64,000 bases of DNA from Mayamaea pseudoterrestris. Its lineage: Eukaryota. The stretch lies in contig BROI01000034.1 of NCBI GenBank assembly GCA_027923505.1, positions 1-64,000 on the forward strand, read 5' to 3'. The notes under the pieces are model-generated. The model made no database searches and was not told the origin of the DNA. It was given only the letters and a program-made list of their open reading frames with translations. A program made the translations under genes and the position numbers. Shown piece after piece: positions 6,001 to 64,000 of this stretch (the first letter of the stretch is position 1; every line of letters begins with the position of its first letter).

Positions 6001-9000
6001 CAGTTGAAGGGCCATCTGCTTAGAAGGCGTCACTGGTGCACCATTGCAGCATCCAATGAGCACCTGCATGGCCAAACCCTTGTCCCATATGTTCATTTGG
6101 CGTGGTGAAACCCCGCCATGGCATCCAAGTAGCTCAGTGACGGCGAGAAGGAAATTCCTTCTGAGCGCCAGTTGAAGGGCCATCTGCCTAGAAGGCGCCA
6201 CTGGTGCACCATTGGAGCATCCAATGAGCACCTGCATGGCCAAACCCTTGTCCCATATGTTCATTTGGAGTGGTGAGACCCCGTTATGGCATCCAAGTAG
6301 CTCAGTGACGGCGAGAAGGAAAAACCTTCTGAGCGCCAGTTGAAGGGCCATCTGCCTAGAAGGCGCCAATGGTGCACCAATGGAGCATCCAATGAGCACC
6401 TGCATGGCCAAACCCTTGTCCCATATGTTAATTTAGTGTGGTGAAACCCCGCCATGGCATCCAAGTAGCTCAGTGACGGCGAGAAGGAAAAACCTTCTGA
6501 GCGCCAGTTGAAGGGCCATCTGCCTAGAAGGCGCCAATGGTGCACCAATGGAGCATCCAATGAGCACCTGCATGGCCAAACCCTTGTCCCATATGTTAAT
6601 TTAGTGTGGTGAAACCCCGCCATGGCATCCAAAAAGCTCAGTGTCAGTGAGAAGGAAAAACCTTCTGAGCGCCAGTTGAAGGGCCATCTGCCTAGAAGGC
6701 ACCACTGGTGCACCATTGGAGCATCCAATGAGCACCTGCATGGCCAAACCCTTGTCCCATATGTTCATTTGGTGTGGTGAAACCCCGCCATGGCATCCAA
6801 GTAGCTCAGTGACGGCGAGAAGGAAAAACCTTCTGAGCGCCAGTTGAAGGGCCATCTGCCTAGAAGGCGCCACTGGTGCACCAATGGAGCATCCAATGAG
6901 CACCTGCATGGCCAAACCCTTGTCCCATATGTTCATTTGGTGTGGTGAAACCCCGCCATGGCATCCAAGTAGCTCACTGACGGCGAGAAGGAAAATCCTT
7001 CTGAGCACCAGTTGAAGGGCCATCTGCATAGAAGGCACCACTGGTGCACCATTGGAGCATCCGATGAGCACCTGCATGGCTAAACCCTTGTGCCATTTGT
7101 TCATTTGGCGTGGTGAAACTCCGTTATGGCATCCAAGTAGCTCAGTGACGGCGAGAAGGAAAAACCTTCTGAGCGCCAGTTGAAGGGCCATCTGCCTAGA
7201 AGGCGCCAATGGTGCACCAATGGAGCATCCAATGAGCACCTGCATGGCCAAACCCTTGTCCCATATAGCGCCAACGTATGTTCATTTGGCGTGGTGAAAC
7301 CCCGCCATGGCATCCAAGTAGCTCAGTGACAGCGAGAAGGAAAAACCTTCTGAGCGCCAGTTGAAGGGCCATCTGCCTAGAAGGCGCCACTGGTGCACCA
7401 TTGGAGCATCCAATGAGCACCTGCATGGCCAAACCCTTGTCCCATATGTTCATTTGGCGTGGTGAAACCCCGCCATGGCATCCAAGTAGCTCAGTGGCGG
7501 CGAGAAGGAAAACCTTTTGGGTTCCTTGAAGGGACATCTGCCTAGAGAGTGCCACTGATGCACCAGTATATCATCCTATGAGCACCTGCATTGCCAATCC
7601 CTTGTCCCATATGTTCATTTGGCGTGGTGAAACCCCGCCATGGCATCCAAGTAGCTCAGTGACAGCGAGAAGAAAACCTTCTGAGCACCAGTTGAAGGGG
7701 CATCTGCCTAGAAGGCGCCACTGGTGCACCAATGGAGCATTTAATGAGCACCTGCATAGCCAAACCTTTGTTCCATATATTCATTTTGCGTGGCAAAAAC
7801 CGTTCTTGGCATCCAAGTAGCTCAGTGACGGCAAGAAGGAAAGCCTTTGGAGCGCGGCTTGAAGGGTCATCTGCCTAGAAGGTGCCCCTGATGCACCAGT
7901 GGAACATCCAAGAGCACCTGCATGGCCAAACCCTATTCCCATATGTTCAATTAGTGTGGCAAACTCCTCCATGGCATCCAAGTAGCTCACTGACGGCGAG
8001 AAGGAAAATCTTCTGAGCACCAGTTGAAGGGCCATCTGCCTAGAAGGCGCCACTGGTGCACCATTGGAGCATCCAATGAGCACCTGCATGGCCAAACCCT
8101 TGTCCCGTATGTTCATTTGGCGTGGTGAAACCCCGCCATGGCATCCAAGTAGCTCAGTGATGGCGAGAAGGAAAAACCTTCTGAGCGCCAGTTGAAGGGC
8201 CATCTGCCTAGAAGGCGCCACTGGTGCACCATTGGAGCATCCAATGAGCGTCTGCATGGCCAAACCCTTGTTCAATATGTTCATTTGGCGTGGTGAAACC
8301 CCGCCATGGCATCCAAGTAGCTCAGTGACGGCGAGAAGGAAATTCCTTCTGAGCGCCAGTTGAAGGGCCATCTGCCTAGAAGGCGCCACTGGTGCACCAA
8401 TGGAGCATCCAATGAGCACCTGCATGGCCAAACCCTTGTCCCGTATGTTCATTTGGCGTGGTGAAACCCCGCCATGGCATCCAAGTAGCTCACTGACGGC
8501 GAGAAGGAAAATCCTTCTGAGCGCCAGTTGAAGGGGCATCTGCCTAGAAGGCACCACTGGTGCACCAATGGAGCATCCAATGAGCACCTGCATGGCCAAA
8601 CCCTTGTGCCGTATGTTCATTTGGCGTGGTGAAATCCCGCCATGGCATCCAAGTAGCTCAGTGACGGCGAGAAGGAAAATCCTTCTGAGCGCCAGTTGAA
8701 GGGCCATCTGCCTAGAAGGCGCCACTGGTGCACCATTGGAGCATCCAATGAGCACCTGCATGGCCAAACCCTTGTCCTGTATGTTCATTTGGTGTGGTGA
8801 AATTCTGCCATGGCATCCAAGTAGCTAAGTGACAGCATGAAGGGAAATCCTTCTGAGCGCCAGTTGAAGGGTCATCTGCCTAGTAGGTGCCACTGGTGCA
8901 CCAATGGAGCATCCAATGAGCAACTGCATGGCCAAACCCTTGTCCCGTATGTTCATTTGGCGTGGTGAAACCCCTCCATGGCATCCAAGTAGCTCAGTGA

Positions 9001-12000
9001 CGGTGAGAAGGAAAATCCTTCTGAGCGCCAGTTGAAGGGCCATCTGCCTAGAAGGCACCACTGGTGCACCAATGGAGCATCCAATGAGCACCTGCATGGC
9101 CAAACCCTGGTCCCGTATGTTCATTTGGAGTGGTGAAACCCCACCATGGCATCCAAGTAGCTCAGTGTTGGCGAGAAGGAAAAACCTTCTGAGCGCCAGT
9201 TGAAGGACCATCTGCCTAGAAGGCGCCACTGGTGCACCATTGGAGCATCCAATGAGCACCTGCATGGCCAAACCCTTGTCCCATATGTTCATTTGGTGTG
9301 GTGAAACCCCGCCATGGCATCCAAGTAGCTCACTGACGGCAAGAAGGAAAATCCTTTTGAGCGCCAGTTGAAGGGCCATCTGCCTAGAAGGCGCCACTGG
9401 TGCACCAATGGAGCATCCAATGAGCACTTGCATGGCCAAACCCTTGTTCAATATGTTCATTTGTCGTGGTGAAACCCCGCCATGGCATCCAAGTAGCTCA
9501 CTGACGGCGAGAAGGAAAATCCTTTTGAGCGCCAGTTGAAGGGCCATCTGCCTAGAAGGCGCCACTGGTGCACCAATGGAGCATCCAATGAGCACCTGCA
9601 TGGCCAAACCCTTGTCCCGTATGTTCATTTGGCGTGGTGAAACCCCGCCATGGCATCCAAGTAGCTCAGTGACAGCGAGAAGGAAAAACCTTTTGAGCGC
9701 CAGTTGAAGGGCATCTGCCTAGAAGGCGCCACTGGTGCACCAATGGAGCATCAATGAGCACCTGCATGGCCAAACCCTTGTGCCGTATGTTCATTTGGCG
9801 TGGTGAAATCCCGCCATGGCATCAAGTAGCTCAGTGACTGAAAAACTTCTGAGCGCCACTTGAAGGGGCATCTGCCTAGAAGGCGCCACTGGTGCACCAA
9901 TGGAGCATCCTATGAGCTCCTGCATGGCCAAACTCTTGTCCCATATGTTCATTTGGCGTGATGAAACCCCTCCATACTCCTCCATTGCATCCAAATAGCT
10001 CAGTGACGGCGAGAAGGAAAAATTCTTCTGAGCACCACTTGTAGGGGCATCTGCATAGAAGACGCCACTGGTGCACCAATGGAGCATCCTATGTGCACTT
10101 GCATGGCCAAACCCTTGTCCCGTATGTTCATTTGGCGTGGTGAAACCCCGCCATGGCATCCAAGTAGCTCAGTGATGGCGAGAAGGAAAAACCTTCTGAG
10201 CGCCAGTTGAAGGGGCATCTGCCTAGAAGGCGCCACTGGTGCACCAATGGAGCATCCAATGAGCACCTGCATGTCCAAACCCTTGTCCCGTATGTTCATT
10301 TGGCGTGGTGAAACCCCTCCATGGCATCCAAGTAGCTCAGTGACGGCGAGAAGGAAAATCCTTCTGAGCGCCAGTTGAAGGGTCATCTGCCTAGAAGGCG
10401 CCACTGGTGCACCAATGGAGCATCCAATGAGCACCTGCATGGCCAAACCCTTGTCCCGTATGTTCATTTGGCGTGGTGAAACCCCTCCATGGCATCCAAG
10501 TAGCTCAGTGACGGCGAGAAGGAAAAACCTTCTGAGCGCCAGTTGAAGGGCCATCTGCCTAGAAGGCGCCACTGGTGCACCAATGGAGCATCCTATGAGC
10601 ACCTGCATGGCCAAACCCTTGTCCGGTATGTTCATTTGGCGTGGTGAATGCCCGCCATGGCATCCAAGTAGCTCAATTACACCGAGAAGGAAAATCCTTC
10701 TGAGCGCCGCTTCAAGGGTCATCTGCCTAGAAGGTGCCACTGGTGCAGCAACGGAGCATCCAATGAGCACCTGCATGGCCAAACCCTTGTCCCATATGTT
10801 CATTTGGTGTGGTGAAACCCCTCCATGGCATCCAAGTAGCTCAGTGACGGCGAGAAGGAAAATCCTTCTGAGCGCCAGTTGAAGGGGCATCTGCCTAGAA
10901 GGCGCCACTGGTGCACCAATGGAGCATCCAATGAGCACCTGCATGGCCAAACCCTTGTCCCATATGTTCATTTGGCGTGGTGAAACCCCGCCATGGCATC
11001 CAAGTAGCTCAGTGACGGCGAGAAGGAAAAACCTTCTGAGCGCCAGTTGAAGGGCCATCTGCCTAGAAGGCGCCACTGGTGCACCAATGGAGCATCCAAT
11101 GAGCACCTGCATGGCCAAACCCTTGTCCCATATGTTCATTTAGTGTGGTGAAACCCCGCCATGGCATCCAAGTAGCTCATTGATGGTGAGAAGGAAAAAC
11201 CTTCTGAGCGCCAGTTGAAGAACCATCTGCCTAGAAGGCGCCACTGGTACACCATTGGAGCATCCTATGAGCATCTGCATGGGCAAACCCTTGTCCCATA
11301 TGGTCATTTGGTGTGGTGAAACCCCGCCATGGCATCCAAGTAGCTCACTGACGGCAAGAAGGAAAATCCTTTTGAGCGCCAGTTGAAGGGCCATCTGCCT
11401 AGAAGGCGCCACTGGTGCACCAATGGAGCATCCAATGAGCACCTGCATGGCCAAACCCTTGTCCCGTATGTTCATTTGGCGTGGTGAAACCCCTCCATGG
11501 CATCCAAGTAGCTCAGTGACGGCGAGAAGGAAAAACCTTCTGAGCACCAGTTGAAGGGGCATCTGCCTAGAAGGCGCCACTGGTGCACCAATGGAGCATC
11601 CAATGAGCATCTGCATGGCCAAACCCTTGTCCCGTATGTTCATTTGGCGTGGTGAAACCCCTCCATGGCATCCAAGTAGCTCAGTGACGGCGAGAAGGAA
11701 AAACCTTCTGAGCGCCAGTTGAAGGGGCATCTGCCTAGAAGGCGCCACTGGTGCACCAATGGAGCATCCAATGAGCACCTGCATGGCCAAACCCTTGTCC
11801 CGTATGTTCATTTGGCGTGGTGAAACCCCTCCATGGCATCCAAGTAGCTCAGTGACGGCGAGAAGGAACAACCTTCTGATCGCCAGTTGAAGGGCCATCT
11901 GCCTAGAAGGCGCCACTGGTGCACCAATGGAGCATCCAATGAGCACCTGCATGGCCAAACCCTTGTCCCGTATGTTCATTTGGCGTGGTGAAACCCCGCC

Positions 12001-14440
12001 ATGGCATCCAAGTAGCTCAGTGACAGCGAGAAGGAAAAACCTTCTGAGCGCCAGTTGAAGGGCCATCTGCCTAGAAGGCGCCACTGGTGCACCAATGGAG
12101 CATCCAATGAGCACCTGCATGGCCAAACCCTTGTCCCATATGTTCATTTGGTGTGGTGAAACCCCTCCATGGCATCCAAGTAGCTCAGTGACGGCGAGAA
12201 GGAAAATCCTTCTGAGCGCCAGTTGAAGGGCCATCTGCCTAGAAGGCGCCACTGGTGCACCAATGGAGCATCCAATGAGCACCTGCATGGCCAAACCCTT
12301 GTCCCATATGTTCATTTGGCGTGGTGAAACCCCTCCATGGCATCCAAGTAGCTCAGTGACGGCGAGAAGGAAAATCCTTCTGAGCGCCAGTTGAAGGGTC
12401 ATCTGCCTAGAAGGCGCCACTGGTGCACCAATGGAGCATCCAATGAGCATCTGCATGGCCAAACCCTTGTCCCATATGTTCATTTGGCGTGGTGAAACCC
12501 CTCCATGGCATCCAAGTAGCTCAGTGACGGCGAGAAGGAAAAACCTTCTGAGCGCCAGTTGAAGGGGCATCTGCCTAGAAGGCGCCACTGATGCACCAGT
12601 GGAACATCCAAGAGCACCTGCATGGCCAAACCCTATTCCCATATGTTCAATTAGTGTGGCAAACTCCTCCATGGCATCCAAGTAGCTCAGTATACGCGAG
12701 AAGAAAAAACCTTCTGAGCGCCAGTTGAAGGGCCATCTGCCTAGAAGGCGCCACTGGTGCACCAATGGAGCATCCAATGAGCACCTGCATGGCCAAACCC
12801 TTGTCCCGTATGTTCATTTGGCGTGGTGAAACCCCTCCATGGCATCCAAGTAGCTCAGTGATGGCGAGAAGGAAAATCCTTCTGAGCGCCAGTTGAAGGG
12901 GCATCTGCCTAGAAGGCGCCACTGGTGCACCAATGGAGCATCCTATGAGCACCTGCATGGCCAAACCCTTGTCCCGTATGTTCATTTGGCGTGGTGAAAC
13001 CCCTCCATGGCATCCAAGTAGCTCAGTGACGGCGAGAAGGAAAAACCTTCTGAGCGCCAGTTGAAGGGGCATCTGCCTAGAAGGCGCCACTGGTGCACCA
13101 ATGGAGCATCCAATGAGCACCTGCATGTCCAAACCCTTGTCCCGTATGTTCATTTGGCGTGGTGAAACCCCTCCATGGCAACCAAGGAGCTCAGGGAAGG
13201 CGAGAAAGAAAAATACTTCTGAGCGCCAGTTGAAGGGGCATCTGCCTAGAAGGCGCCACTGGTGCACCAATGGAGCATCCAATGAGCATCTGCATGGCCA
13301 AACCCTTGTCCCGTATGTTCATTTGGCGTGGTGAAACCCCTCCATGGCATCCAAGTAGCTCAGTGACGGCGAGAAGGAAAAACCTTCTGAGCGCCAGTTG
13401 AAGGGGCATCTGCCTAGAAGGCGCCACTGGTGCACCAATGGAGCATCCAATGAGCACCTGCATGTCCAAACCCTTGTCCCGTATGTTCATTTGGCGTGGT
13501 GAAACCCCTCCATGGCATCCAAGTAGCTCAGTGACGGCGAGAAGGAAAATCCTTCTGAGCGCCAGTTGAAGGGGCATCTGCCTAGAAGGCGCCACTGGTG
13601 CACCAATGGAGCATCAAATGAGCACCTGCATGTCCAAACCCTTGTTGTTGTGTATAATCATTTGGCGTGGTGAAACCCCTCCATGGCATCCAAGTAGCTC
13701 AGTGACGGCGAGAAGGAAAATCCTTCTGAGCGCCACTTGTAGGGGCATCTGCCTAGAAGGCGCCACTGGTGCACCAATGGAGCATCCAATGAGCACCTGC
13801 ATGGCCAAACCCTTGTCCCGTATGTTCATTTGGCGTGGTGAAACCCCTCCATGGCATCCAAGTAGCTCAGTGACGGCGAGAAGGAAAATCCTTCTGAGCG
13901 CCAGTTGAAGGGGCATCTGCCTAGAAGGCGCCACTGGTGCACCAATGGAGCATCCAATGAGCACCTGCATGGCCAAACCCTTGTCCCGTATGTTCATTTG
14001 GCGTGGTGAAACCCCTCCATGGCATCCAAGTAGCTCAGTGACGGCGAGAAGGAAAATCCTTCTGAGCGCCAGTTGAAGGGGCATCTGCCTAGAAGGCGCC
14101 ACTGGTGCACCAATGGAGCATCCAATGAGCACCTGCATGTCCAAACCCTTGTCCCGTATGTTCATTTGGCGTGGTGAAACCCCTCCATGGCATCCAAGTA
14201 GCTCAGTGACGGCGAGAAGGAAAATCCTTCTGAGCGCCAGTTGAAGGGGCATCTGCCTAGAAGGCGCCACTGGTGCACCAATGAATCCATGGACTGCATC
14301 CAATGAGCACCTCCATGGCCAAACCCTTGCCCACCTGCATGGCCAAACACTTGTCCCGTATGTTCACTTGGCATGGTGAAACCCCTTCATGGCATCCAAG
14401 TAGCTCATTGATGGCAAGAAGGAAAATCCTTCTGAGCGCT
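1..14440. repeat. 168-bp tandem satellite, ~86 copies, running off the left edge
   Basis: Monomer ATGTTCATTTGGCGTGGTGAAACCCCGCCATGGCATCCAAGTAGCTCAGTGACGGCGAGAAGGAAAAACCTTCTGAGCGCCAGTTGAAGGG... recurs every 168 bp. Lines 2061 and 2901 are nearly identical and 840 bp (5x168) apart. Confidence 0.98.
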
Positions 14441-36648: not shown

Positions 36649-38241
36649 TCACTCATTCTCTAAACCGTACGGGTCAAAGCTGTCAAGATTCTCGTCTTCA
36701 AACGTCAACGTCGACCGCTCATTCACAGTGAATGATTCCTCGTCGCCGTATAAGAGGTCAAACAAGTCTCGTCGATCCTCCTTCAATTGACCAACGTCTC
36801 CGTCCGCCTTTTTTCGACCGCGCGGTTTTGAAGCTTGCGCCTCCTCCTCTGTTATATCAGCCTGTATGCTTTTAGCGATTACTCCTAGTGATGTTGGTGC
36901 TTTCATGGGCTTCTTGGCCACTGCGCTGCGCTTTACTGCAACAGGTTTAACTTCCGCCTTGGTAACCGGAGTCACGCTTGTCGGAAGCTTTCTTGTTATT
37001 GTCGTTGATGTTGACGCATTCGTCGCCTTTTGTGATTCCGCCTTTCGTGGTTTTCGGAGCGGTTCAAGTCGCCGCACAATGACAGCTGCTTCCTTGACTG
37101 CAGCCGATCGTTTCTTCCGCGGCGTCGCCGCGCGGGGAGGCCGCGGCGGTCGAGACGACGACACAGCTCCCTTGCGCGCCGCAATCGACTCGAGCGTCTT
37201 TGCCCGATACACTTCATCCTGCCACTTGGCCTTCATGGCTTCACTAATCTTTCGTCGATGCGTTTCGTCCAACGAAATGCCAATGTTTCGCTTGCGATTG
37301 GCCATTTTCGCCACCATGATTGCTCGAAACTCTGGATCCTGCCACTTGGCGCGTAGCGTTTCGCTGATGCGTCTGCGCGTGTCAGTGGCGTTGCTGCTGC
37401 CTGTTTTGGCCTTTTTGACCATGTTTTCGCGATAGGACTGGTCCGTGTTCCATCGCTTGCGGAGCGATTCTGATATTTTGCGTCTCGTTTCCTCCGTGTG
37501 AGTGAATCCTCTGCGTACATGTGTCACGTTGCGTGGTCGAATTTCGTTCTTGGCGTACTTTTCCTTGAGTATACGACTAATCTTTTGCTTGGTTTCCTTG
37601 GTGGGAATGTAGCCACCATTTTTGGTTCGTCGCGCCAAAGAAGCTTGCTTCTTGCGTTCCTCCTCCTGCTGTTGCTGCAGCTCATACTCCTTCTCCGTCA
37701 AGCCCAGCGCTTGCAGTTTCGCCAGGAATCGTTGTCGATTGCGTGCCTGCACGCCCGCGGCAATCTTGGCGCGCGTCTCCGGTGAGCGCTCCTTGCCCTT
37801 GTTCCATGGCACCTTGCCGCGGTTGGCGGCCGATATTTTGGCGCGACTGGCAGTCGTATGTGTAAAGCCTCCGTTGGGTGTTGGTCTAGCAATGTCATTG
37901 TCTGGTAGTTGCAGCGTGTGTGAAATGAATGAATGATGAAGGTGGTGCTGATTGTGATCAGAATGTCCGTTATGGAGAGTTGTCGTTCCATTGACATGAT
38001 GGCCATTCGAGTAGCTAATTGTAGTAAAGTCAATTGAGAATTCTGCCGTCTCGGTTCTAACTTTAGAGCTGTCGAGTTTGAATATGTCTTTTCGACGAAA
38101 CTGAGGATTGGTTGATGATGTCATCGGCTTTTTGCCGCCATCGCCGTGCCTTGGAAGGAACGCGGGGAACGTAAAAGCTTGGGCACCATGGAGCCTGAAT
38201 TCTATTTGATACAAAGTCAGCAGCAATATTACGAGTTTCAT
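36649..38241 (-). CDS. NUMOD3/IENR2-repeat DNA-binding protein, likely plastid-targeted
   Basis: Repeated motifs HTTASRAKISAA.GKVPWNKG, SPETRAKIAAG, TKETKQKIS, HTEETRRKISESL, DTRRRISETL, ETHRRKISEAM. Presequence MKLVILLL...AQA-F. The ORF is open up to 38364. Confidence 0.85.
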   Translation of the reverse strand: MKLVILLLTLYQIEFRLHGAQAFTFPAFLPRHGDGGKKPMTSSTNPQFRRKDIFKLDSSKVRTETAEFSIDFTTISYSNGHHVNGTTTLHNGHSDHNQHHLHHSFISHTLQLPDNDIARPTPNGGFTHTTASRAKISAANRGKVPWNKGKERSPETRAKIAAGVQARNRQRFLAKLQALGLTEKEYELQQQQEEERKKQASLARRTKNGGYIPTKETKQKISRILKEKYAKNEIRPRNVTHVRRGFTHTEETRRKISESLRKRWNTDQSYRENMVKKAKTGSSNATDTRRRISETLRAKWQDPEFRAIMVAKMANRKRNIGISLDETHRRKISEAMKAKWQDEVYRAKTLESIAARKGAVSSSRPPRPPRAATPRKKRSAAVKEAAVIVRRLEPLRKPRKAESQKATNASTSTTITRKLPTSVTPVTKAEVKPVAVKRSAVAKKPMKAPTSLGVIAKSIQADITEEEAQASKPRGRKKADGDVGQLKEDRRDLFDLLYGDEESFTVNERSTLTFEDENLDSFDPYGLENE

Positions 38242-38728
38242 GGATTGGTGGGTGCAGTGGTGTCTTGGTTTGGACGGTCGAAGTGGAGCGATGGGTGCTT
38301 CAACATGCATTTCTTGATCGCTTTTAGCGTTTGCGTCCGATCTTGATCGCTTTAAAGGGTTCATTTGGCGTCTATTGAGCGTTTTAACAGTTCAATCGTC
38401 AGTGCTTTATTACACGCAGCTCTTTTGGTCGAGCTGCTGCAGAAAAGGAGTAACGTTGTTGGGATGATTGCAAATGCGATGCTTGGTTGTCGCTCACCAA
38501 CCACGCCGTCGCGGCGAAGCCAGCAGTTTCGTCCGTCCGTCGGTCCTGCGACTCACACCGGTTTTCGTTGTGACTCAATTGATTTTTCGCTCATCACCAT
38601 GGTGGAAATGAGCCGAAGGTTTCCTCGTCGCGCGTTGCTCAAAGTGAGAATCTAGCAATAGATAATAAGGAAAAAAGGGAAAGGATCTACTGAGTTTTCA
38701 ACCTAAGGCCGGAGTGAGAACTCGTCTC

Positions 38729-50640: not shown

Positions 50641-50689
50641 ACAAAATTCAGCCAGTCCTAATGGCAGAACATCCATAGCTGACTACTAG

Positions 50690-51575
50690 CAGCCTCTGTA
50701 TGGGAGGGCACTTCAGACATCCACACAGGAACCAGCCTGTTACACCATTGCTTTGCTCCATCAATCCTGTTTGGCTATGCTTGGGGACATGCCTGCGGTG
50801 GATTGGTGAAAAAAACAGCGGATTCTAGCAGCTACGTATGGCTCACATTACACACCACAATGGCGCTAACCTTACCCCAATTGTAGTCTTGCTCCATCAA
50901 TTCCATTTGGCTATGCTTGATAACATGCTTGCAGTGAGATTGGTAAAAATCATCCATAGCTGTTTCCAAGCAGCAATGGTATGGGGGGGCAGTTCAGACA
51001 TTTACACAGGAGCCAGCACCATGGTGCTACAGTGCATGGCATTCAAACCTTACCCCAATTGTAGTCTTGCTCCATCAAATCCATTTGGCTATGCTTGATA
51101 ACATGCTTGCAGTGAGATTGGTAAAAAAACATCCATAGCTGTTTCCAAGCAGCTATGGTATGGGAGGGCAGTTCAGACATTTACACAAGAACCAGCACCA
51201 TGGCGCTACAGTGCATGGCATTCAAACCTTATCCCAATTGTAGTCTTGCTCCATCAATTCCATTTGGCTATGCTTGATATCATGCTTGCAGTGAGATTGG
51301 TAAAAAACATCCATAGCTGTTCCAAGCAGCTATGGTATGGGTGGACAATTCAGACATCCACACATGAACCAGCTCCAAGTGCATGGCCTAATTGTAGTAT
51401 TGCTCATCAATCCTGTATTGCTATGCTTGGGGACATGCTTGCGGTGAGATTGGTGCAAAAAATTCATCCATAGTGAATTTCTAGCAGCTATGGTATGGGA
51501 GGGCAATCCAGACATCCACACAGGTACTGCAATATGGTGCTACAGTGCATGGCCTTCCAAACCTACCCCCAATTG
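50690..51575. repeat. ~179-bp tandem satellite, ~5 copies
   Basis: TTGTAGTCTTGCTCCATCAA...GCTATGCTTGATA at 50881, 51059 and 51238, with more degenerate flanking copies. Confidence 0.9.
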
Positions 51576-52580: not shown

Positions 52581-52675
52581 CCAAGATCCTTATTTCAGGT
52601 GCATAGCAAGATGGATTGCAAGATGGATTGCCTGGCTGGTCCCTTTGTAAACTGCAATGTGACTGGTGAGATCAA

Positions 52676-53920
52676 CTGAAAGTTTGATGTGGTTGACCAC
52701 TTGGAGGAACCTACTTGCTACAAACACGCACATCCACTGACTGATGTGCTTCCTTTTTGGACCATCTCAGCTTTTGACTTTGTCAAACAACTTATGCTGA
52801 TTGCAATGGCATGCTCAGAATAATGCTAGCAAGGTTGGATGTCACACTAAACCCAAATGGAAGTTTGCTGTGTTTGCCACATGGTAAAGCCTACTTGTCT
52901 CAGTCTCAGTTCCACCACAGCCACTGACTGAACTGCTGCCGTTTTCAAAGATATAAGCCTTGAACATTGTGAAGCACCGTCTGCAGATTGCAGTTGCAGG
53001 TTCGGATTCATGGTGACGAGGTTGGATCATTTCATAAATCCCATCTGAAAGTTTGATGTGGTTGACCACTTTGGAGGAACCTACTTGCTACAATCACGCA
53101 TATCCACTGACTGATGTGCTTCCATTTTGGACCATCTCAGCCTTTGACTTTGTCAAACAACTTATGCTGATTGCAATGGCATGCTCAGAATAATGCTAGC
53201 AAGGTTGGATTATCACACTAAACGCAACTGAAAGTTTGCTGTGTGTGCCACATGGTAAAGCCTACTTGTCTCAGTCTCGGTTGCACCGCAGCCACTGACT
53301 GAACTGCTGCCATTTTCAAAGATCCAAGCCTTGGACCTAGTCAAGTACCATCTGCAGATTGCAGTTGCAGGTTCGGATTCATGATGACAAGGTTGGATCA
53401 TTAAATAAATCCCATCTGAAAGTTTGATGTGGTTGACCACTTGGAGAAACCTACTTGCTACAATCACACACATCCACTGACTGATGTGCTTCCTTTTTGG
53501 ACCATACCAGCCTTTGACTTTGTCAAACAACTTATGCTGATTGCAATGGCATGCTCAGAATAATGCTAACAAGGTTGGATTATCACACTAAACCCAACTG
53601 AAAGTTTGCTGTGTTTGCCACATGGTATAGTCTACTTGTCTCCTTCTCAGTTGCACCGCAGCCACTGACTGATCTGCTGCTGTTTTCAAAGATATAAGCC
53701 TTGAACATTGTGAAGCACCGTCTGCAGATTGCAGTTGCAGGTTCGGATTCATGGTGACGAGGTTGGATCATTTCATAAATCCCATCTGAAAGTTTGATGT
53801 GGTTGACCACTTGGAGGAACCTACTTGCTACAATCACGCACATCCACTGACTGATGTGCTATCTTTTTGAACCATCTCAGCCTTTGACTTTGTCAAACAA
53901 CTTCTGCTGATTGCAATGGC
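52676..53920. repeat. ~370-bp satellite (dimer of two diverged ~185-bp subunits), ~3.4 copies; another copy at ~58465-58833
   Basis: CTGAAAGTTTGATGTGGTTGACCAC at 52676, 53045, 53416, 53786 and 58486. Related CTGAAAGTTTGCTGTG lies about halfway between. Confidence 0.92.
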
Positions 53921-54582
53921 CCATCTACTCCACAGCTTTGCCAAAACTTGAGCTTGCCAGGTTTGTTTGGTTTTGTTGGCTTCATTGATCATTTTGCCCA
54001 TGGTGGCAATGTTAGTTATTGATGGGGATGCCCAGCGGACCTGGTGGCATGGTGTGGCGACGTACGGGATACTTAGCTATGTGGAAGCTAGCATGTCTAC
54101 TCCCAAAACTTGAAGGATTTGCATGACTGCCAAGGTTGTAGAGGATGATTGACCTTACCAAAATTTTCTTGAAAGGTGGGAATGCTTCACATGATGGGGA
54201 TGGCCAAAGTTTTGCGGGTGCTGCCACTGCTGCTGCTGCCACTGCTGCTGCGTGACATACAGTCACATGGAATACAGCGTATCTACTCCTGTTTTGCCAG
54301 GAACACATGAGTTGTCCAACAGACATCAGCCAAGCCTACCATCATGTAGCGCAGCCTGAATAATGATGTTAGCACCATTCTGGTGTATTTTGGGCACCTA
54401 CAGGGCTTGCTGTAGGAACGTTTGAATGTCATGGCTTCGCGGGCTGAGACTGGTGACAAGTTGTCACCAAATACATTGCCATCCCCTGAGACACCAGCCA
54501 AGCCTACCATTTTGTAGCGCAGCCGGAATAATGATGTGGTCACCATTCTGGTGTATTTTGGGCACCTACAGGGCTTGTTGGA

Positions 54583-55863
54583 TGACACGATAATATCAGA
54601 CGAACCTTTATTCCAGCGACTACAATGGACTAGGAGCGATCAACCTCTTCGTCCAGCGTAAAGCAAACAAACAAACTCAATTGCTAGAATAGTGCGTGTT
54701 ACTCGCTACTCTACTCGTGCGCTTCTTTCTCATTCTCACTGGGTTCACGGTCGAGGTTCACGCCTCGATCGTCAGCGATTTCACTCATGTATGTGAGGAT
54801 TCGGTCACAATTGTGACTCAACCCTGCACAGGATTAAATGCATACAAAACACAGGTAGCTAACCGTCTTGTCATGAGACGCAGGTCAACTCAACTCAATA
54901 ATATTGTGTCATCCCCCTTGATCTAGGCTTGTGACAACGATTGACACGATAATATCAGACGAACCTTTATTCCAGCGACTACAATGGACTAGGAGCGATC
55001 AACCTCTTCGTCCAGCGTAAAGCAAACAAACAAACTCAATTGCTAGAATAGTGCGTGTTACTCGCTACTCTACTCGTGCGCTTCTTTCTCATTCTCACTG
55101 GGTTCACGGTCAGGTTTAACGCCTCGATCGTCAGCATTCACTCATGTATGTGAGGATTCGGTCACAATTGTGACTCAACCCTGCACAGGATTAAATGCAT
55201 ACAAAACACAGGTAGCTAACCGTCTTGTCATGAGACGCAGGTCAACTCAACTCAATAATATTGTGTCATCCCCCTTGATCTAGGCTTGTGACAACGATTG
55301 TTTTCCTCACTGTAACGCAACCATGATAGTGAATACCTCGCTTCGCAAGTCCTTTCTACACAACAACCGCTCTCAATGCGGCCGAGCCTTATACGATCCT
55401 GTTCCTGCGCTCGTGCCAAGTATTCGGATTGACGCCGCCTGGAATCTGCTCTTTCTCTCTCAATTTCTCGATTCTTTCACTCTCTCTTTCGCACAGCTCT
55501 CTCAGGTCAAGACAAGCTAGCAAGACTGTTAATCTGACACGATAATATCAGACGAACCTTTATTCCAGCGACTACAATGGACTAGGAGCGATCAACCTCT
55601 TCGTCCAGCGTAAAGCAAACAAACAAACTCAATTGCTAGAATAGTGCGTGTTACTCGCTACTCTACTCGTGCGCTTCTTTCTCATTCTCACTGGGTTCAC
55701 GGTCGAGGTTCACGCCTCGATCGTCAGCGATTTCACTCATGTATGTGAGGATTCGGTCACAATTGTGACTCAACCCTGCACAGGATTAAATGCATACAAA
55801 ACACAGGTAGCTAACCGTCTTGTCATGAGACGCAGGTCAACTCAACTCAATAATATTGTGTCA
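54583..55863 (-). mobile_element. Non-autonomous miniature LTR retrotransposon (TRIM-like) with three LTRs (54583-54911, 54942-55268, 55535-55863)
   Basis: TGACAC...GTGTCA LTRs of 329/327/329 bp. TSD TTGGA at 54578-54582 and 55864-55868 restores the satellite sequence. PPT AAGGGGGA on the minus strand. Internal region is 266 bp and non-coding. Confidence 0.93.
55520..55534 (-). promoter_or_regulatory. Putative primer-binding site complementary to a tRNA-Asn(GTT) anticodon arm
   Basis: The minus strand directly after the 5' LTR reads GATTAACAGTCTTGC. Its complement GCAAGA-CT-GTT-AA-TC has anticodon-arm geometry. Confidence 0.7.
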
Positions 55864-58833
55864 TTGGAGGGGTGTTTGAATGTCACAGCATTTGCAGGCT
55901 GTGACTGGTGACAAGTTGTCACCAAATACATTGCCATCCCCTAAGACACCAGCCAAGCCTACCATCTTGTAGCGCAGCCTGAATAATGATGTTGGCACCA
56001 TTCTGGTGTATTTTGGGCACCTACAAGGCTTGCTGTAGGAGCGTTTGAATGTCATTGCATCCGCAGGCTGAGACTGGTGACAAGTTGTCACCAAATACAT
56101 TGCCATCACCTGAGACACCAGCTAAGCCTACCATCTTGTAGCACAGCCTGAATAATAATGATGTAATAATGATGGTAGCACCATTCTGGTGTATTTTGGG
56201 CACCTACAGGGCTTGCTGTAGGAACATTTGAATTTCACGGCAATTGCGGGCTGAGACTGGTGACAAGTTGTCACCAAATACATTGCCATCCCCTGAGACA
56301 CCAGCCAAGCCTACCATCTTGTAGAGCAGCCTGCATAATGATGTTGGCACCATTCTAGTGTATTTTGGGCACCTACAGGGCTTGTTGGAGGGGTGTTTGA
56401 ATGTCACAGCATTTGCGGGCTGTGACTGGTGACAAATTGTCACCAAATACATTGCCATCCCCTGAGACACCAGCCAAGCCTACCATCTTGTAGCAAAGCC
56501 TGAATAATGATGTTGGCAACATTCTGGTGTATTTTGGGCACCTACAGGGCTTGCTGTAGGGGCGTTTGAATGTCATGGCATCTGCGGGCTGAGACTGGTG
56601 ACAAGTTGTCACCAAATACATTGCCATCCCTTGAGACACCAGCCAAGCCTACCATCTTGTAGCGCAGCCTGAATAATGATGTTGGCACCATTCTGGTGTA
56701 TTTTGGGCACCTACAGGGCTTGCTGTAGGGGCGTTTGAATGTCACGGCATCCGCAGGCTGAGACTGGTGACAAGTTGTCACCAAATACATTGCCATCCCC
56801 TGAGACACCAGCCAAGCCTACCATCTTGTAGCGCAGCCTGAATAATGATGTTGGCACCATTCTGGTGTATTTTGGGCACCTACAGGGCTTGCTGTAGGGG
56901 CGTTTGAATGTCACAGCAATTGCGGGCTGAGACTGGTGACAAGTTGTCACCAAATACATTGCCATCCCCTGAGACACCAGCCAAGCCTACCATTTTGTAG
57001 AGCAGCCTGAATAATGATGTTGGCACCATTCTAGTGTATTTTGGGCACCTACAGGGCTTGTTGGAGGGGTGTTTAAATGTCCCAGCATTTGCGGGCTGTG
57101 ACTGGTGACAAATTGTCACCAAATACATTGCCATCCCCTGAGACACCAGCCAAGCCTACCATCTTGTAGCGTAGCCTGAATAATGATGTTGGCACCATTC
57201 TGGTGTATTTTGGGCACCTACAGGGCTTGCTGTAGGGGCGTTTGAATGTCATGGCATCTGCGGGCTGAGACTGGTGACAAGTTGTCACCAAATACATTGC
57301 CATCCCCTGAGACACCAGCCAAGCCTACCATCTTGTAGCGCAGCCTGTATAATGATGGTGGAACCATTCTGGTGTATTTTGGGCACCTACAGGGCATGCT
57401 GTAGGGGCGTTTGAATGTCACAGCATCCGCGGGCTGAGACTGGTGACAAGTTTTCACCAAATACATTGCCATCCCCTGAGACACCAGCCAAGCCTGCCAT
57501 CTTGTAGCGTAGCCTGAATAATGATGTTGGCACCATTCTGGTGTATTTTGGGCACCTACAGGGCTTGCTGTAGGGGCGTTTGAATGTCATGGCATCTGCG
57601 GGCTGAGACTGGTGACAAGTTGTCACCAAATACATTGCCATCCCTTGAGACACCAGCCAAGCCTACCATCATGTAGCGCAGCCTGAATAATGATGTTGGC
57701 ACCATTCTGGTGTATTTTGGACACCTACAGGGCTTGCTGTAGGGGCGTTTGAATGTCACAGCAATTGTGGGCTGAGACTGGTGACAAGTTGTCACCAAAT
57801 ACATTGCCATCCCCTGGGACACCAGCTAAGCCTACCATGTTGTAGCGCAGCCTGCACAATGATGTTGGCACCATTCTGGTGTATTTTGGGTAACTACAGG
57901 GCTTGCTATAGGGGCGTTTGAATGTCATGGCATCCGCGGGCTGAGACTGGTGACAAATTGTCACCAGATACATTGCCATCCCTGAGACACCAGCCAAGCC
58001 TACCATCTTGTAGAGCAGCCTGAATAATGAGGTTGGCATCATTCTGGTGTATTTTGGGCACCTGCAGGGCTTGCTGTAGGGGCATTTGAATGTCACAGCA
58101 TTTGTGGGCTGAGACTGGTGACAAATTGCCACCAAATACATTGCCATCCCCTGAGACACCAGCCAAGCCTACCATCTTGTAGCGCAGCCTGAATAATGAT
58201 GTTGGCTCCATTCTGGTGTATTTTGGGCACCTACAAGGCTTGCTGTAGGGGTAACACCATGGAATAGTCTGCAGGCTGGGTGTGGCCAACACCCCACATT
58301 ATGGAGTCATACCACTACAGTGCCCCGTAACCTGGCCACCCAAATACCCAATGAGTCAAGCAAAACATGTCCAGGGTATGCCATTGACAGGTGCAGAGTC
58401 TCAGATGGTGCAAAAAGGACTGCCTGGAGACTGACACCATGGGTACGGCCTCCACTGTGGGTGTTGGATCATTTCAAAATCCCATCTGAAAGTTTGATGT
58501 GGTTGACCACTTGGAGGAACCTACTTGCTACAATCATGCACATCCACTGACTGATGTGCTTCCTTTTTGGACCATCTCGGCCTTTGACTTTGTCAAACAA
58601 CTTACGCTGATTGCAATGGCATGCTCAGAATAATGCTAGCAAGGTTGGATTGTCACACTAAACCCAAATGAAAGTTTGCTGTGTTTGCCACATGGTAAAG
58701 CCTACTTGTCTCAGTCTCAGTTGCACGGCAGCCACTGACTGAACTGCTGCCGCTTTCAAAGATCCAAGCCTTGGACCTTGTCAAATACCATCTGCAGATT
58801 GCAGTTGCAGGTTCGGATTCATGGTGACAAGGT

Positions 58834-61740
58834 TGACACGATAATATCAGACGAACCTTTATTCCAGCGACTACAATGGACTAGGAGCGATCAACCTCTT
58901 CGTCCAGCGTAAAGCAAACAAACAAACTCAATTGCTAGAATAGTGCGTGTTACTCGCTACTCTACTCGTGCGCTTCTTTCTCATTCTCACTGGGTTCACG
59001 GTCGAGGTTCACGCCTCGATCGTCAGCGATTTCACTCATGTATGTGAGTATTCGGTCACAATTGTGACTCAACCCTGCACAGGATTAAATGCATACAAAA
59101 CACAGGTAGCTAACCGTCTTGTCATGAGACGCAGGTCAACTCAACTCAATAATATTGTGTCATCCCCCTTGATCTAGGCTTGTGACAACGATCGGTTTGC
59201 CGTATCACCCTTCCAGAAAAGAATCGGAATGATCAGGGGTCGGAACGTGGCATGTGGCAAGAACTTGGTAAGAACGTCGGCGACGTTCTGCTTGCCCAAG
59301 ATGTGCTCAAAGTACAGAACATTGCTTGCAATGGCCTCACGAACTCGGTGGTAGGCGAGCGCATTGTGTCGCTTAGAAAGTGTGGAGTGCGGGATCGTTG
59401 ACGACTTCTTGACACTTTCGTTGTCGCCGAACATCCAGGCTGGTCCACTCAAAGGAACTCCCAACATGCGTAGGGAGTATCGGAAATCCACTAGTCTGTT
59501 CGCCGGGTCTTGGCTGAACTCGGATCCGTACGTTGCAGTCTCAACAGTATTCTGACGCTTGCAGAACCATTCGACAGGCGTCTGGTTCAGGAAATGCAGG
59601 ACTCCCATTGCGGAACGTCCAGTAGTGTAATCATGGTACAGGTTCGCGTCCATAAAGGTAGTTAGTTGCACAGGCTTGCCCTTCGGGATCGGCATGTTCC
59701 ACGGAAGCTCTTCGCTTGAGTTGCCGTAGACCGATTGCAACCAATCATACTTGGTAGGTTCCCCGTGATCGACGATCTTCGTCCGGAAACGAATCGCCGC
59801 ATCAGGGTACTCAGCTAGGTAACCGCAGACTCGCTTGGCTCGGTCCAGGTGTCCGCGGCGCGGGGCGCAGCGGAATCGTCCAAGTGTCATAACGGCACAA
59901 TGAATGTCAAGTCGACATAGGGTCACTGCCCACTGGAGGGCACCGATAAGAGACTGGTACTGTTGAATGCCACGGGCATCCAGCTCTTCGGTAAGGTCAA
60001 GTTCGGGGTGGTCCCCGTCGTCAAGCGGTGACTTGCGCTTGCGTGGTTTCTCGCCAAACATGGTTTCGTAGTTCTTGAGCATGCGACCGACGTAGGTCTT
60101 TGCGCTCATGCAGAGGGTTCCATCGGGATCACGATAGAAGTCGGCTCCAAGGTGGTACTTGATGTCGCCGACGCCCTTTAGCTTGTACTTGTACTTCTCC
60201 TTGAGGAGGTCTGTGAAGGCTTGTGGATCCTTCATGGCCATAGCCAGATCGTCGACGAACACGCCGACGTACTCGTAGTGAGTGCCACAGTCTTTCATCC
60301 AGACGTCAGGATCCGCGTAGCTTGGATAGAATCCAATGTCGCGGAGTGTGTCGGCAAAGTGCTCATGCCAACGCGCGCCAGAAGTGCGCAATCCGTATAG
60401 TGCCTTGTAGATGACCAAGGTATGGCCTTCCAATGGTCCAAACTCGGGACCGGCAACAATGTAGACCTTTTCCTTGGTCTTGGCCTCGAGGTAGGCGTTA
60501 CCGACATCGGCAGCCCAAAACTTGAGGTCGTTCAGTTCAGCTAACAGTGCTATGGTTCGAATGCTTCGCATAGAGACAACGCCGGAGTAGGCGGAGTCTT
60601 TGGGCGGAGCTGTCAAATGTCCCCCAGCGACGAGTCGGGCCTTACGTCGTAGATCGTTCTTGCAGTCGACAACAAGATGCGCGTTGATGCGCTTCCAATC
60701 ACTTTCCATGAAGGCACCGATGCCCTTGTCGATGAAAGTGTCGTACTCGTGTAGCTGCTCCATCTCAGTCTTGACGGCGTCAGCCCACAGGGTGTTTCCA
60801 TTAGCAGCGTCGAGGCGGTTCGCTTCCTTCCAGGTATTAGGAACTTGAACGCCAAATTTGAAACGCGCTTCTTGGACACGGTTCTTCTTTGCAGCCTTGC
60901 ACATGCGGTTAAACAGTTTAGTGCGTCCTGCCATGCGCCTCAAGCGCTTCCATCCATCCTTGTCCAACATACCCTTGCGCTTGCCGTATTCGGCAACGGT
61001 AACAGGGTCGGACTTGATAATCAATGCGAGTGGCTCCCAGGTCTTCTCGCCATTTGCCCATTGGATGAGCAAGTTGTAGGATGAGCCGCGATACGTAGCG
61101 TCGGCTTGTGTCAGTGAACCCTCATGTCCGTCAATGAAATCAAACTTGTAGTACTGATCATCGTCGTCATCGTCCCCCAGTCGTAAAGAATCTTGCCGCT
61201 CGCACAGGTCGGCTAGTTCGTTGTAGGTAATAAGCTCGTCGACGTCGCCGTCGCCGAGACTCAATCGGAACTTGATAATCTTGTGGTTGGCTTCGTCGCG
61301 ATCGTTCAGTTGCTCGATAACCTTGTAACGTCGCGTGGAGCCATCTTCCTCGTCAAGAAGGACAGTGCGTCCCATCAGTTCAGCCGGAGTAAAGGACGGC
61401 ATGGGTCCATCAGGATCCAAACCGGCTAACTCAGCAGCGCTTTCCAACGTGAATGCGTCTTCATCCACGGTTCCCCCAGAATCAGGCGCTGGGGTCGGTG
61501 TAAGGTCGTGTTCAAACACCAGACCAACTAGGTCATAATCAACGTCAAACTCGTCGACAGTTTCGACTTGGACTCGTTCACGCACGGGGCGCGCGTCGAA
61601 TACAGGTTCCGCGAAAAGTGATGCTCGGACTCGGGTTCAGAGCGTGCCGCCAGCCATAGGTTACGCTTCTTCGGAGAAGGGACGAACGTTGGATCGGACG
61701 ACAACCATTCCAGTCCGATCGGATCGAACTGTGGCTGCGA
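58834..61740 (-). mobile_element. 5'-truncated Ty1/Copia (CoDi-like) LTR retrotransposon; 3' LTR 58834-59162, PPT 59163-59170
   Basis: Same 329-bp LTR (one G>T difference noticed), PPT, and pol with RT and RNase H. No gag, protease, integrase core or 5' LTR; the element abuts a satellite at ~61730-61750. Confidence 0.95.
59174..61585 (-). pseudogene. pol: Copia pol fragment: chromodomain-like segment, reverse transcriptase, RNase H
   Basis: RKARLVAGG, ADVGNAYL, KALYGLRTSG, FVDD catalytic motif, YQSLIGAL, FMDAN, TATYGSE, GDN, NVADVLTK. Truncated upstream. Confidence 0.93.
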
Positions 61741-61749
61741 GGGAGCATC

Positions 61750-64000
61750 CGCATTGCCTGCTGAGCCCTCCCATATATTGGAAATAGGCATGTTGTCATG
61801 ATGGGCCATATGTTGGTCAGTTGCATCTCAGTAACCATCACAATGTATGCCATGGTGAGACTCCGCCAACCCTACAACTTGTTGGATCTGCTAGTGGTGC
61901 ACCTCAAGTGGCAAGCAAGACTTCTAAAATGGCCTGCAAACCCCATAATACAACAAACATGGACTTGAGCAGTGAATGGGACTCATAGACTTCTCCATTG
62001 AGGTGTAGAAGCTATTACTATGCCCTGAGACTCCGCACATTTAACAACTGGTTGAATGTGCCAGCCCTGCTCCCTTTTTGGTTGCAGGGATCACCAGCAT
62101 TGCCTGCTGAGCCCTCCAATATCTTTCATTTTATGTTTGTTGTCATGATGGGCCAATAAGTTGGTCAGTTGCACCTCAGTATCCATCACCATGGTACGCC
62201 ACTGTTACACTGAGCCTACCAACAACTTGTTGGATCTGCCAGAGCTGCCAGCAGTGCTCCTCAAGTGGCAAGTGAGACTTCCAAAATGGCCTCCAGACCC
62301 CAAAACACATCAAACATGGACTGTAACAGTGAATGGGACTCATAGACTTGTCCAGTTGGGGTGGAAGCCATCACTATGCCCTGACACTCGGCACATTCAA
62401 CAACTGGTAGAATGTGCCAGCCCGGCTCCCTTTTTGGCTGCAGGGATCATCAGCAGTGCCTGCTGATCCCTCCAATTTATTTCAAATTGGTTTGTTGTCA
62501 TGATGGGCCATAAGTTGGTCAGTTGCACCTCAGTATCCATAACCGTGTATGCCATGGTGAGACTCAGCTGATCCTACAACTTGTTGGATCTGCCAGCAGT
62601 GCACCTCAAGTGGCAAGTGAGACTTTTATAATGGCCTGCAAACCCCATAATACAATGCACATGGACTGTTACAGTGAATGGGACTCAAAGACTTGTCCAT
62701 TGGGGTGTGGAAGCCATCACTATGCCCTGAGACTCCGCACATTCAACAACTGGTTGAATGTGCCAGTCCTGCTCCCTTTGTGGCTACAGGGATCTTCAGC
62801 ATTCCCTGCTTAACCCTCCAATATGTTTCAAATAGGTTTGTTGTCATTATGGGCCATAAGTTGATCAATTGCACCTCAGTATCCATCGCCATGTATGCAA
62901 TGATGATTCTGAGCAGATAACAACTTGTTGGATCTGCCAGCAGTGTACCTCAAGTGGCAAGTGAGACTTCCAAAATGGCCTCCAGACCCCATAATACAAC
63001 GTACATGGACTGTAACAGTGAATGGGACTCAAAGACATGACCAATTGGGTGTGAAAGCCATCACTATGCCCTGAGACTCTGCACATTCAACAACTGGTTA
63101 AATGTGCCAGCCCTGCTCCTTTTGTGGCTGCAAGGATCATCAGCATTGCTCGCTGAGCCCTCCAATATAATTCAAATAGGTTTGTTGTCATGATGGGCCA
63201 TAAGTTGGTCAATTGCACCTCAGTATCCATAACCGTGTATGCCATGGTGAGACTCAGCCGATCCTACAACTTGTTGGATCTGCCAGCAGTGCACCTCAAG
63301 TGGCAAGTGAGACTTTTATAATGGCCTGCAAACCCCATAATACAATGCACATGGACTGTTACAGTGAATGGGACTCAAAGACTTGTCCATTGGGGTGTGG
63401 AAGCCATCACTATGCCCTGAGACTCCGCACATTCAACAACTGGTTGAATGTGCCAGCCATGCTCCCTTTTGGCTGCAGGGATCATCAGCATTGCCTGCTG
63501 AGCCCTCCCAATCCTTTTCATATCATGTTTGTTGTCATGGTGGGCCATAAGTTGGTCAGTTGCACCTCCGTATCCTTCACCATGTATGGTGAGACTGAGC
63601 AAATCCAACAACTTGTTGGATCTGCCAGTGGTGCACTTCAAATGGCAAGTGAGACTTCCAAAATGGCCTGGAGACCCCATAATACAACTCACTTGGACTG
63701 TAACAGTGAATGGGACTCAAAGACATGACCAATTGGGTGCGAAAGCCATCACTATACCCTGAGACTCAACACATTCAACAACTGGTTGAATGTGCCAGCC
63801 CTGCTCCTTTTGTGGCTGCAGGGATCATCAGCATTGCTCGCTGAGCCCTCCAATATAATGCAAATAGGTTTGTTGTCATGATGGGCCATAAGTTGGTCAA
63901 TTGCACCTCAGTATCCATAACCGTGTATGCCATGGTGAGACTCAGCTGATCCTACAACTTGTTGGATCTGCCAGCAGTGCACCTCAAGTGGCAAGTGAGA
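61750..64000. repeat. ~345-bp tandem satellite with ~690-bp higher-order dimer, running off the right edge
   Basis: GCATTGCCTGCTGAGCCCTCC-like at 61751, 62098, 62453, 62799, 63143, 63488 and 63831. Near-identical segments start at 62523, 63213 and 63901. Confidence 0.93.

Follow-up and report, generated by a model that had tools for sequence, protein, structure and literature searches.

Results

Genes and repeats of the window

The window, by which we mean the whole stretch of 64,000 nt that was analysed, contains neighbouring genes with Pfam matches to PsbQ, fatty-acid elongase, choline kinase and DUF6824. Judging from these neighbours, the window is nuclear DNA from a photosynthetic, stramenopile-like eukaryote, with DUF6824 being a family that we take to be associated with diatoms. 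Short matches to Pfam PRTase_2, limited to its first ~40 positions, were obtained for each of six consecutive frames of 267–545 aa on the minus strand (4583–12777), several of which also match DUF2537 weakly; the region has the look of a gene that is repeated or was duplicated in tandem. Another minus-strand frame of 571 aa (36649–38364) contains a NUMOD3 motif (E 1e-20). Homing endonucleases commonly have this DNA-binding motif, which one would not expect among nuclear genes.

Repeats with various periods make up nearly all of the final 14 kb of the window. A tandem array of ~178 bp is present in five copies at 50668–51531. A tandem repeat with a period of 370 bp and an internal period of ~185 bp occupies 52667–53950 and 58477–58882 and thereby flanks a block of satellite and LTR sequences, as if a larger segment had been duplicated ~5.07 kb apart. 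The satellite of this block has a repeat unit of 169 bp (54271–54582 and 55814–58323) and at least 14 copies, mostly 90–97% alike, and its array is interrupted by a retroelement. Finally, a tandem repeat of 344–346 bp (61656–64000) abuts a 5'-truncated Copia pol frame and reaches the end of the window.

A triple-LTR element of 1.3 kb and its truncated autonomous relative

The retroelement inserted in the 169-bp satellite runs on the minus strand from 55863 to 54583 in the order LTR, primer-binding site (PBS), 266-nt internal region, LTR, 30-nt spacer and LTR. The 5' LTR (55535–55863) has a length of 329 bp, from TGACAC to GTGTCA, and is identical at 329 of 329 positions to the 3' LTR, which also spans 329 bp (54583–54911). 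Downstream of the PBS, the remainder of the 266-nt internal region (55269–55519) consists of a leader and the last 30 nt that are common to an autonomous copy, and it closes with the polypurine tract AAGGGGGA (55276–55269); the coding sequence has been wholly deleted. The middle LTR of 327 bp (54942–55268) shows a 2-nt deletion and ~5 substitutions clustered at LTR positions 133–159. It is followed by the 30-nt spacer (54912–54941), which repeats the last 30 nt of the internal region exactly, including the polypurine tract, and the unit of 30 nt plus LTR hence occurs twice with a period of 359. A target-site duplication, TCCAA, was found on the same strand both upstream (55864–55868) and downstream (54578–54582) of the element. 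The TG...CA termini of the LTRs, the target duplication of 5 bp and the presence of AAGGGGGA ahead of each downstream LTR are as in Ty1/copia elements.

Because the outer LTRs are identical over their entire length and the element is bounded by the TCCAA duplication, the 1.3-kb copy was mobilised recently. It is a non-autonomous, internally deleted derivative that kept the LTRs, the PBS, the leader and the polypurine tract, which provides some evidence that the PBS is among the sequences needed in cis. The middle LTR has its cluster of changes, whereas the outer pair is free of differences and lies between the TCCAA repeats, and this extra LTR may therefore have belonged to the reverse-transcribed template.

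The window also contains part of an autonomous copy from this family, namely a 5'-truncated pol frame (P0001, 59174–61636, minus strand) and the 3' LTR (58834–59162, minus strand). This LTR shows a single difference when compared with the other full-length LTRs and comes after the same polypurine tract. This copy is without integrase, gag, 5' LTR and PBS, and the 346-bp unit of the tandem repeat mentioned above abuts its truncated upstream end. P0001 matches PF07727, the Ty1/copia-type reverse transcriptase (RVT_2), with an E-value of 4.4e-25 and 89 bits (cut-off 31.6). The autonomous copy in the window is truncated ahead of the integrase. Precomputed matches to PF00665, given ahead of PF07727, are present in P0032 and P0046, two of the 120 relatives listed. 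Altogether, 1046 relatives of P0001 were found at E ≤ 1e-20, the best with 61% identity; they are metagenome proteins that are either unnamed or carry generic names. Scanning a viral contig collection with P0001 gave 13 pattern matches, none of which encodes a relative.

The probable primer-binding site at the LTR junction

A preceding sequence-only reading of the window had claimed that the 15-mer GATTAACAGTCTTGC directly follows the 5' LTR and that the junction has no TGG for pairing with the CCA end of a tRNA. Both claims were reproduced. On the minus strand, the LTR ends at 55535 with ...ATTATCGTGTCA, the 15-mer occupies 55534–55520 and adjoins the terminal CA of the LTR, and no TGG occurs in the first 30 nt past the LTR. 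The boundary of the LTR is well established: all four copies of the 329-bp LTR in the window, which start with TGACAC and end with GTGTCA, share their last base, and the sequence beyond it is different in each. The site is complementary to positions 26–40 of tRNA-Asn(GUU). The length of the match is 15 nt for a tRNA with G26 and 14 nt (positions 27–40) for one without it. Whereas the exact 15-mer has a single occurrence in the whole 64,000-nt window, matches with up to two mismatches were also obtained in 12 of 100 shuffles, and its mere presence is therefore without significance. What makes the 15-mer significant is where it lies, together with the match to the tRNA.

The window contains only one LTR–PBS junction, which lies in a defective copy. 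The order of this locus, with LTR, 266 nt, LTR, 30 nt and LTR inside satellite DNA, is odd and could raise the suspicion that the junction is an artefact of a rearranged triple-LTR locus instead of a true LTR/PBS boundary. We consider such an artefact extremely improbable, given the common GTGTCA end of the four LTR copies, the identity of the outer pair with TCCAA on both sides, and the recurrence of the same junction in independent relatives, as described below. We thus treat the junction as a true boundary between the LTR and the PBS.

A matching tRNA-Asn arm in metagenomes and sequencing runs

The complement of the site had been read as positions 27–40 of a tRNA with the anticodon GTT, and this assignment held when it was compared with real tRNA-Asn genes. 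For a metagenome scan, we used a 17-mer pattern composed of the complement of 14 window bases and three additional bases demanded by stem pairing, which matched at least 120 stretches. Among the matches listed, 61 of 120 are tRNA genes having the 17-mer in the anticodon arm according to ARAGORN. Fifty-nine of these 61 listed genes were called as Asn(gtt), and the other two are truncated genes miscalled as Ala. The other 59 of the 120 listed stretches received no tRNA call and resemble coding sequences or chance matches. The 14-mer corresponding to positions 27–40 matches every one of the 61 tRNA-Asn genes among the matches listed, and 38 of the 61 have G at position 26, giving complementarity of the full 15-mer to positions 26–40. 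The CCA end is encoded in 18 of these 61 listed genes, and a T-run stands after several others, as it does in eukaryotic nuclear tRNA genes. The predicted complement of the PBS is a real and common tRNA-Asn arm.

ARAGORN detected no tRNA gene in the window. The arm expected for a matching host tRNA-Asn(GTT) is GCAAGACTGTTAATC (positions 26–40), and the presence of such a gene in the host had been named as a check of the first reading. We used two sequencing runs from two studies, X1 and X2, which contain 0.79 and 0.77, respectively, of the sampled words from a 9.9-kb unique part of the window, as well as two weaker runs, X3 and X4. Contigs of these runs were aligned to a metagenome tRNA-Asn(GTT) gene (L001:95-200). 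X1 and X2 each have a 418-nt contig that is identical at 57 of 58 positions over tRNA positions 7–64, including the whole anticodon arm, and no contigs matching L001:95-200 were found in X3 and X4. The tRNA-Asn-like gene in the 418-nt contig is completed at its ends by an acceptor stem with 7 of 7 positions paired (GCACCAT / ATGGTGC) and by G73, followed by CACCCTTTT with a T-run; no CCA is encoded. G73 is an identity element of tRNA-Asn. The single difference could fall in the 15 nt, but is more likely at position 49 because the host has T at the partner position 65, where L001 has C. The 418-nt contigs come from sequencing runs as opposed to a curated assembly of the host and could in principle stem from a contaminant.

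X1 and X2 also contain a second contig of 86 nt, which matches L001:136-176 at 36 of 41 positions, from the D-arm to the variable loop. Its ends pair as an acceptor stem, and it represents another host tRNA with a similar body.

Conservation of the site in distant Copia relatives

We searched a prokaryote genome collection with a profile derived from an alignment of 20 P0001 relatives and obtained 36 contigs encoding relatives (L121–L156). The contigs are filed under bacterial or archaeal MAGs, yet the Copia polyprotein that they encode is eukaryotic, and 13 of the contigs share one bin labelled as Sphingobacteriaceae, a sign that those MAG bins are contaminated with eukaryotic sequences. The sequence-only reading had also named as a check whether the 15-mer is conserved next to the 5' LTR in full-length copies and related families. 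The outcome was favourable for its core: the same core stands at the expected place in relatives, as the exact CA|GATTAACAGTC was found in pol orientation in eight of these contigs (L129, L133, L134, L136, L139, L140, L142 and L147), a count without a clean denominator since the eight positives were located via the motif itself. For copies of the window's own family, the comparison is confined to the single junction in the window. The chance expectation of CA|GATTAACAGTC, a 13-mer, in 158,535 nt is ~0.002, and the pol sequences of the eight site-bearing relatives are 47–56% identical to that of the window. A generic filter for anticodon-arm-like sequences after CA turned out to be too permissive, with hundreds of hits, and only the exact-motif matches were used.

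The positions of the motif agree with a PBS. In L133, L134 and L136, in which a long frame can be read, the site lies ~50–70 nt ahead of its first ATG. In L129, L139, L142 and L147, it was found 420–600 nt past the pol stop, the order of the contig being pol, LTR and PBS. The site in L140 comes directly after a 280-nt repeat, of which the second copy ends at the same TATCA and is then followed by unrelated sequence. L128 carries the 15-mer of the window with one extra base. The junction between the 5' LTR and the internal region was sought in the remaining 27 of the 36 contigs and was not located.

Including that of the window, the nine elements share 47–65% mutual pol identity, except for one cluster of 77–80%. 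The invariant core of 11 nt lies opposite tRNA positions 30–40, and the loop bases of the anticodon GTT are constant in nine of nine elements. The four bases after the core are variable: TTGC in the window, TTGG in L134, L136 and L142, TCAG in L133, GCAG in L139 and L140, GCAT in L147, and GTAG in L129. These four bases lie opposite tRNA positions 27–29 and 26, and anticodon stems differ at positions 27–29 between organisms.

We also searched five MAG bins for the host tRNA-Asn of the relatives and found no eukaryote-type gene in them. The 11-mer occurs at 16 places in these bins, comprising six known sites, two tRNA-Asn genes, four PBS-like places and four unrelated ones. The two tRNA-Asn genes were rejected as host genes of the relatives, having different anticodon stems and looking bacterial. 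The four PBS-like places are in short contigs of the same bins, where GATTAACAGTCTTG was observed after a possible LTR end in L167, L171 and L172 (both G001) and L169 (G002), with CA in two of them and AA in the other two. L155 is a distant element with 26% identity and has a pair of LTRs that are 98% identical (2611–2923 and 9341–9648). The sequence after its 5' LTR, TTATTATTTAAAAGTC, includes a Lys(UUU)-like loop complement, and it was discarded as a candidate because it gives no clean fit to a tRNA arm.

In three of the site-bearing relatives, the last bases of the site can pair with a segment further downstream to form a hairpin (L133:1270-1297, L134:135-160 and L136:155-177). The downstream segment repeats the tRNA stem (CCAAGA; CTGAGA in L133), and the two sides of the hairpin covary between L133 and L134/L136. 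The window and the more distant relatives are without it. In the fungal GalEa elements of the Copia type, a conserved hairpin takes the place of a PBS (PMC5445492). These hairpins would fit an explanation in which the likeness to tRNA-Asn is a relic or a coincidence and in which priming is by a hairpin or by self-priming of the Tf1 type instead. However, the hairpin is absent from the window, and the consensus fold of seven sequences gives only a mimic of the anticodon stem. A hairpin also does not require the GTT anticodon loop bases, which are constant in the nine elements. Self-priming of the Tf1 type needs a complement of ~11 nt to the transcript start, whereas no stretch of the LTR is complementary to the site over more than 7 nt, a length at chance level, as 7 nt or more were reached in 108 of 500 shuffles. 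A relic or a coincidence, moreover, is at odds with the match between the site and a tRNA gene in the host runs. We therefore regard hairpin priming or self-priming as very unlikely and favour pairing with tRNA-Asn. The probable tRNA-Asn-using Copia clade, with stramenopile-like hosts, is widespread in environmental DNA.

Proposed priming by a tRNA-Asn half

Taking these observations together, we propose that GATTAACAGTCTTGC is quite likely the minus-strand PBS of a Ty1/copia element with half-tRNA priming as in Hemivirus, in which tRNA-Asn(GUU) replaces the initiator tRNA-Met. The register is the same as that of copia and Ty5, as had been claimed from the sequence: the first base of the PBS pairs with C40 of the tRNA. 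Half-tRNA elements start their cDNA from the 3'-OH of nucleotide 40 (PMC1181622). The earlier idea of a half-tRNA mechanism with a tRNA-Asn primer ending at nucleotide 40 is likewise supported by the sequence comparisons.

In the proposed mechanism, the host tRNA-Asn would be cleaved behind nucleotide 40, which lies in the 3' strand of the anticodon stem. The resulting 5' fragment would then pair, through positions 26/27–40, with the site in the element RNA, and the reverse transcriptase would extend the 3'-OH of C40 into U5. Such a course of events would account for the LTR ending exactly where the complementarity starts, because extension from C40 runs into U5. Both the use of a cleaved tRNA fragment as the physical primer and the place of the cut are inferred from the analogous copia and Ty5 elements; the cleavage itself, a presumed enzyme and the 5' end of the primer belong to the same model. 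The relatives L139, L140 and L147 bear on the position of the cut. Their sites imply C at tRNA position 29 and hence G at position 41, and the LTR still ends in A, which argues against a cut one base further on. The other end of the complementarity may have its own explanation. G26 is modified in tRNA, and plus-strand synthesis would copy the primer only up to the modified G26, where the complementarity stops (26/27). We suggest that the modified G26 may set the end of the PBS in this way.

The complementarity spans positions 26/27–40 only, with nothing on the 5' side, and the sequence does not tell the 5' end of the primer. One could therefore imagine that the site does pair with tRNA-Asn, but that the primer is a short internal fragment, from the D loop to the anticodon stem, or a nicked whole tRNA. 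Diatom tRNA fragments of ~19 nt from the D loop and anticodon region, which fit no standard class (PMC4247016), would be compatible with a short primer. On the other hand, copia, as the only physically characterised case, used a 5' fragment (PMC1181622, PMC6317226). The main text of the diatom study does not contain 'Asn', and its diatom need not be the organism of the window (PMC4247016). We judge an internal fragment or a nicked tRNA to be unlikely and retain the 5' half of tRNA-Asn, ending at nucleotide 40, as the preferred primer.

Discussion

Half-tRNA priming is a long-known variant of the initiation of reverse transcription. To our knowledge, neither the enzyme that makes the half-tRNA primer nor the rule by which a tRNA is chosen is known. 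The element described here would add a tRNA-Asn-using clade from photosynthetic, stramenopile-like hosts to this kind of priming. The core opposite positions 30–40 is invariant across pol sequences of ~50% identity and positions 27–29 are variable, which is the pattern expected of co-evolution with host tRNAs. The observation also has practical consequences. Annotation tools that seek only the 3' ends of tRNAs will label such elements as PBS-less, and the finding of a eukaryotic retroelement in 36 bacterial-MAG contigs can serve as a flag for contamination. The 1.3-kb copy is a natural non-autonomous element, and it shows how small the requirements in cis are.

Small-RNA libraries of a diatom contain unexplained 'D-loop/anticodon' tRNA fragments of ~19 nt (PMC4247016). 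A speculative reading, to which we give rather little credence, is that these fragments are processed primers of the present Copia clade, whose PBS would track the host tRNA-Asn stem, or guides against its PBS. If this were true, the elements would offer a way to find the nuclease responsible for cutting tRNAs behind nucleotide 40.

The closest known systems include Drosophila copia and yeast Ty5 (Hemivirus), in which the PBS also adjoins the CA of the LTR, TGG is absent and the pairing ends at nucleotide 40 (PMC1181622). The reverse transcriptase of the window family is of the same Ty1/copia type. Unlike copia and Ty5, which use a 3'-truncated initiator tRNA-Met, the window element would use tRNA-Asn(GUU) in a photosynthetic, stramenopile-like host, and its priming is predicted from the sequence.

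Primers other than tRNA-Met have been reported for fungi. Helenus and Copia families of rust fungi have PBSs for the anticodon loop, with 3'-truncated tRNA-Tyr, tRNA-Ile and tRNA-Asp as primers, and tRNA-Asn-GTT was adopted once in the evolution of Helenus, in one lineage (PMC10886601). The window element resembles fungal Helenus in having a non-Met, 3'-truncated tRNA as the likely primer and in being a non-autonomous derivative mobilised by Copia (PMC10886601). The LTRs of Helenus, in fungal hosts, contain tRNA-derived sequence (PMC10886601), whereas those of the window do not. A search of 54400–56000 against Rfam gave no matches at E ≤ 1, and together with the absence of ARAGORN genes this leaves no tRNA-like or 5S-like sequence in the LTRs. 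An element of the Helenus or Cassandra type was therefore ruled out, because the LTRs hold nothing tRNA-like or 5S-like. The fungal FunCo1 Copia elements have the PBS ATTAAGAGTCT, which is the complement of an internal region of tRNA-Lys (PMC5445492). It is one base apart from the corresponding 11 nt here, ATTAACAGTCT, the difference being opposite the first anticodon position (PMC5445492). FunCo1 thus pairs with tRNA-Lys in a fungal clade, in contrast to the predicted pairing of the window element with tRNA-Asn.

Plant Copia elements include 1/2 tRNA-Met in Osser, Bryco and Gymco-II and 1/2 tRNA-Ile in Bianca (PMC6317226). As in these plant lineages, half-tRNA primers appear limited to certain Ty1/copia lineages, and the type of primer is characteristic of the lineage (PMC6317226). 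The primer types given in the text of this plant survey do not include 1/2 tRNA-Asn, and tRNA-Asn is given only among the 3'-end primers, in 2% of the elements (PMC6317226). The CoDi lineages of diatom Copia elements probably share the host group and the superfamily with the window element (PMC2806351). The main text of that paper mentions neither tRNA nor a primer-binding site, 'PBS' being used only for a buffer (PMC2806351).

Full-text searches of the literature, covering the main texts of articles, gave no account of this site for diatoms or any other stramenopile. The view of the first reading that such priming was not known as described stands for stramenopiles within these texts, but not for the kind of mechanism, since half-tRNA priming is in print for Met, Ile, Lys, Tyr and Asp and, in Helenus, for Asn-GTT (PMC6317226, PMC5445492, PMC10886601). 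The mechanism is not new in kind; what is new is the tRNA-Asn half-primed Copia clade predicted in stramenopile-like hosts.
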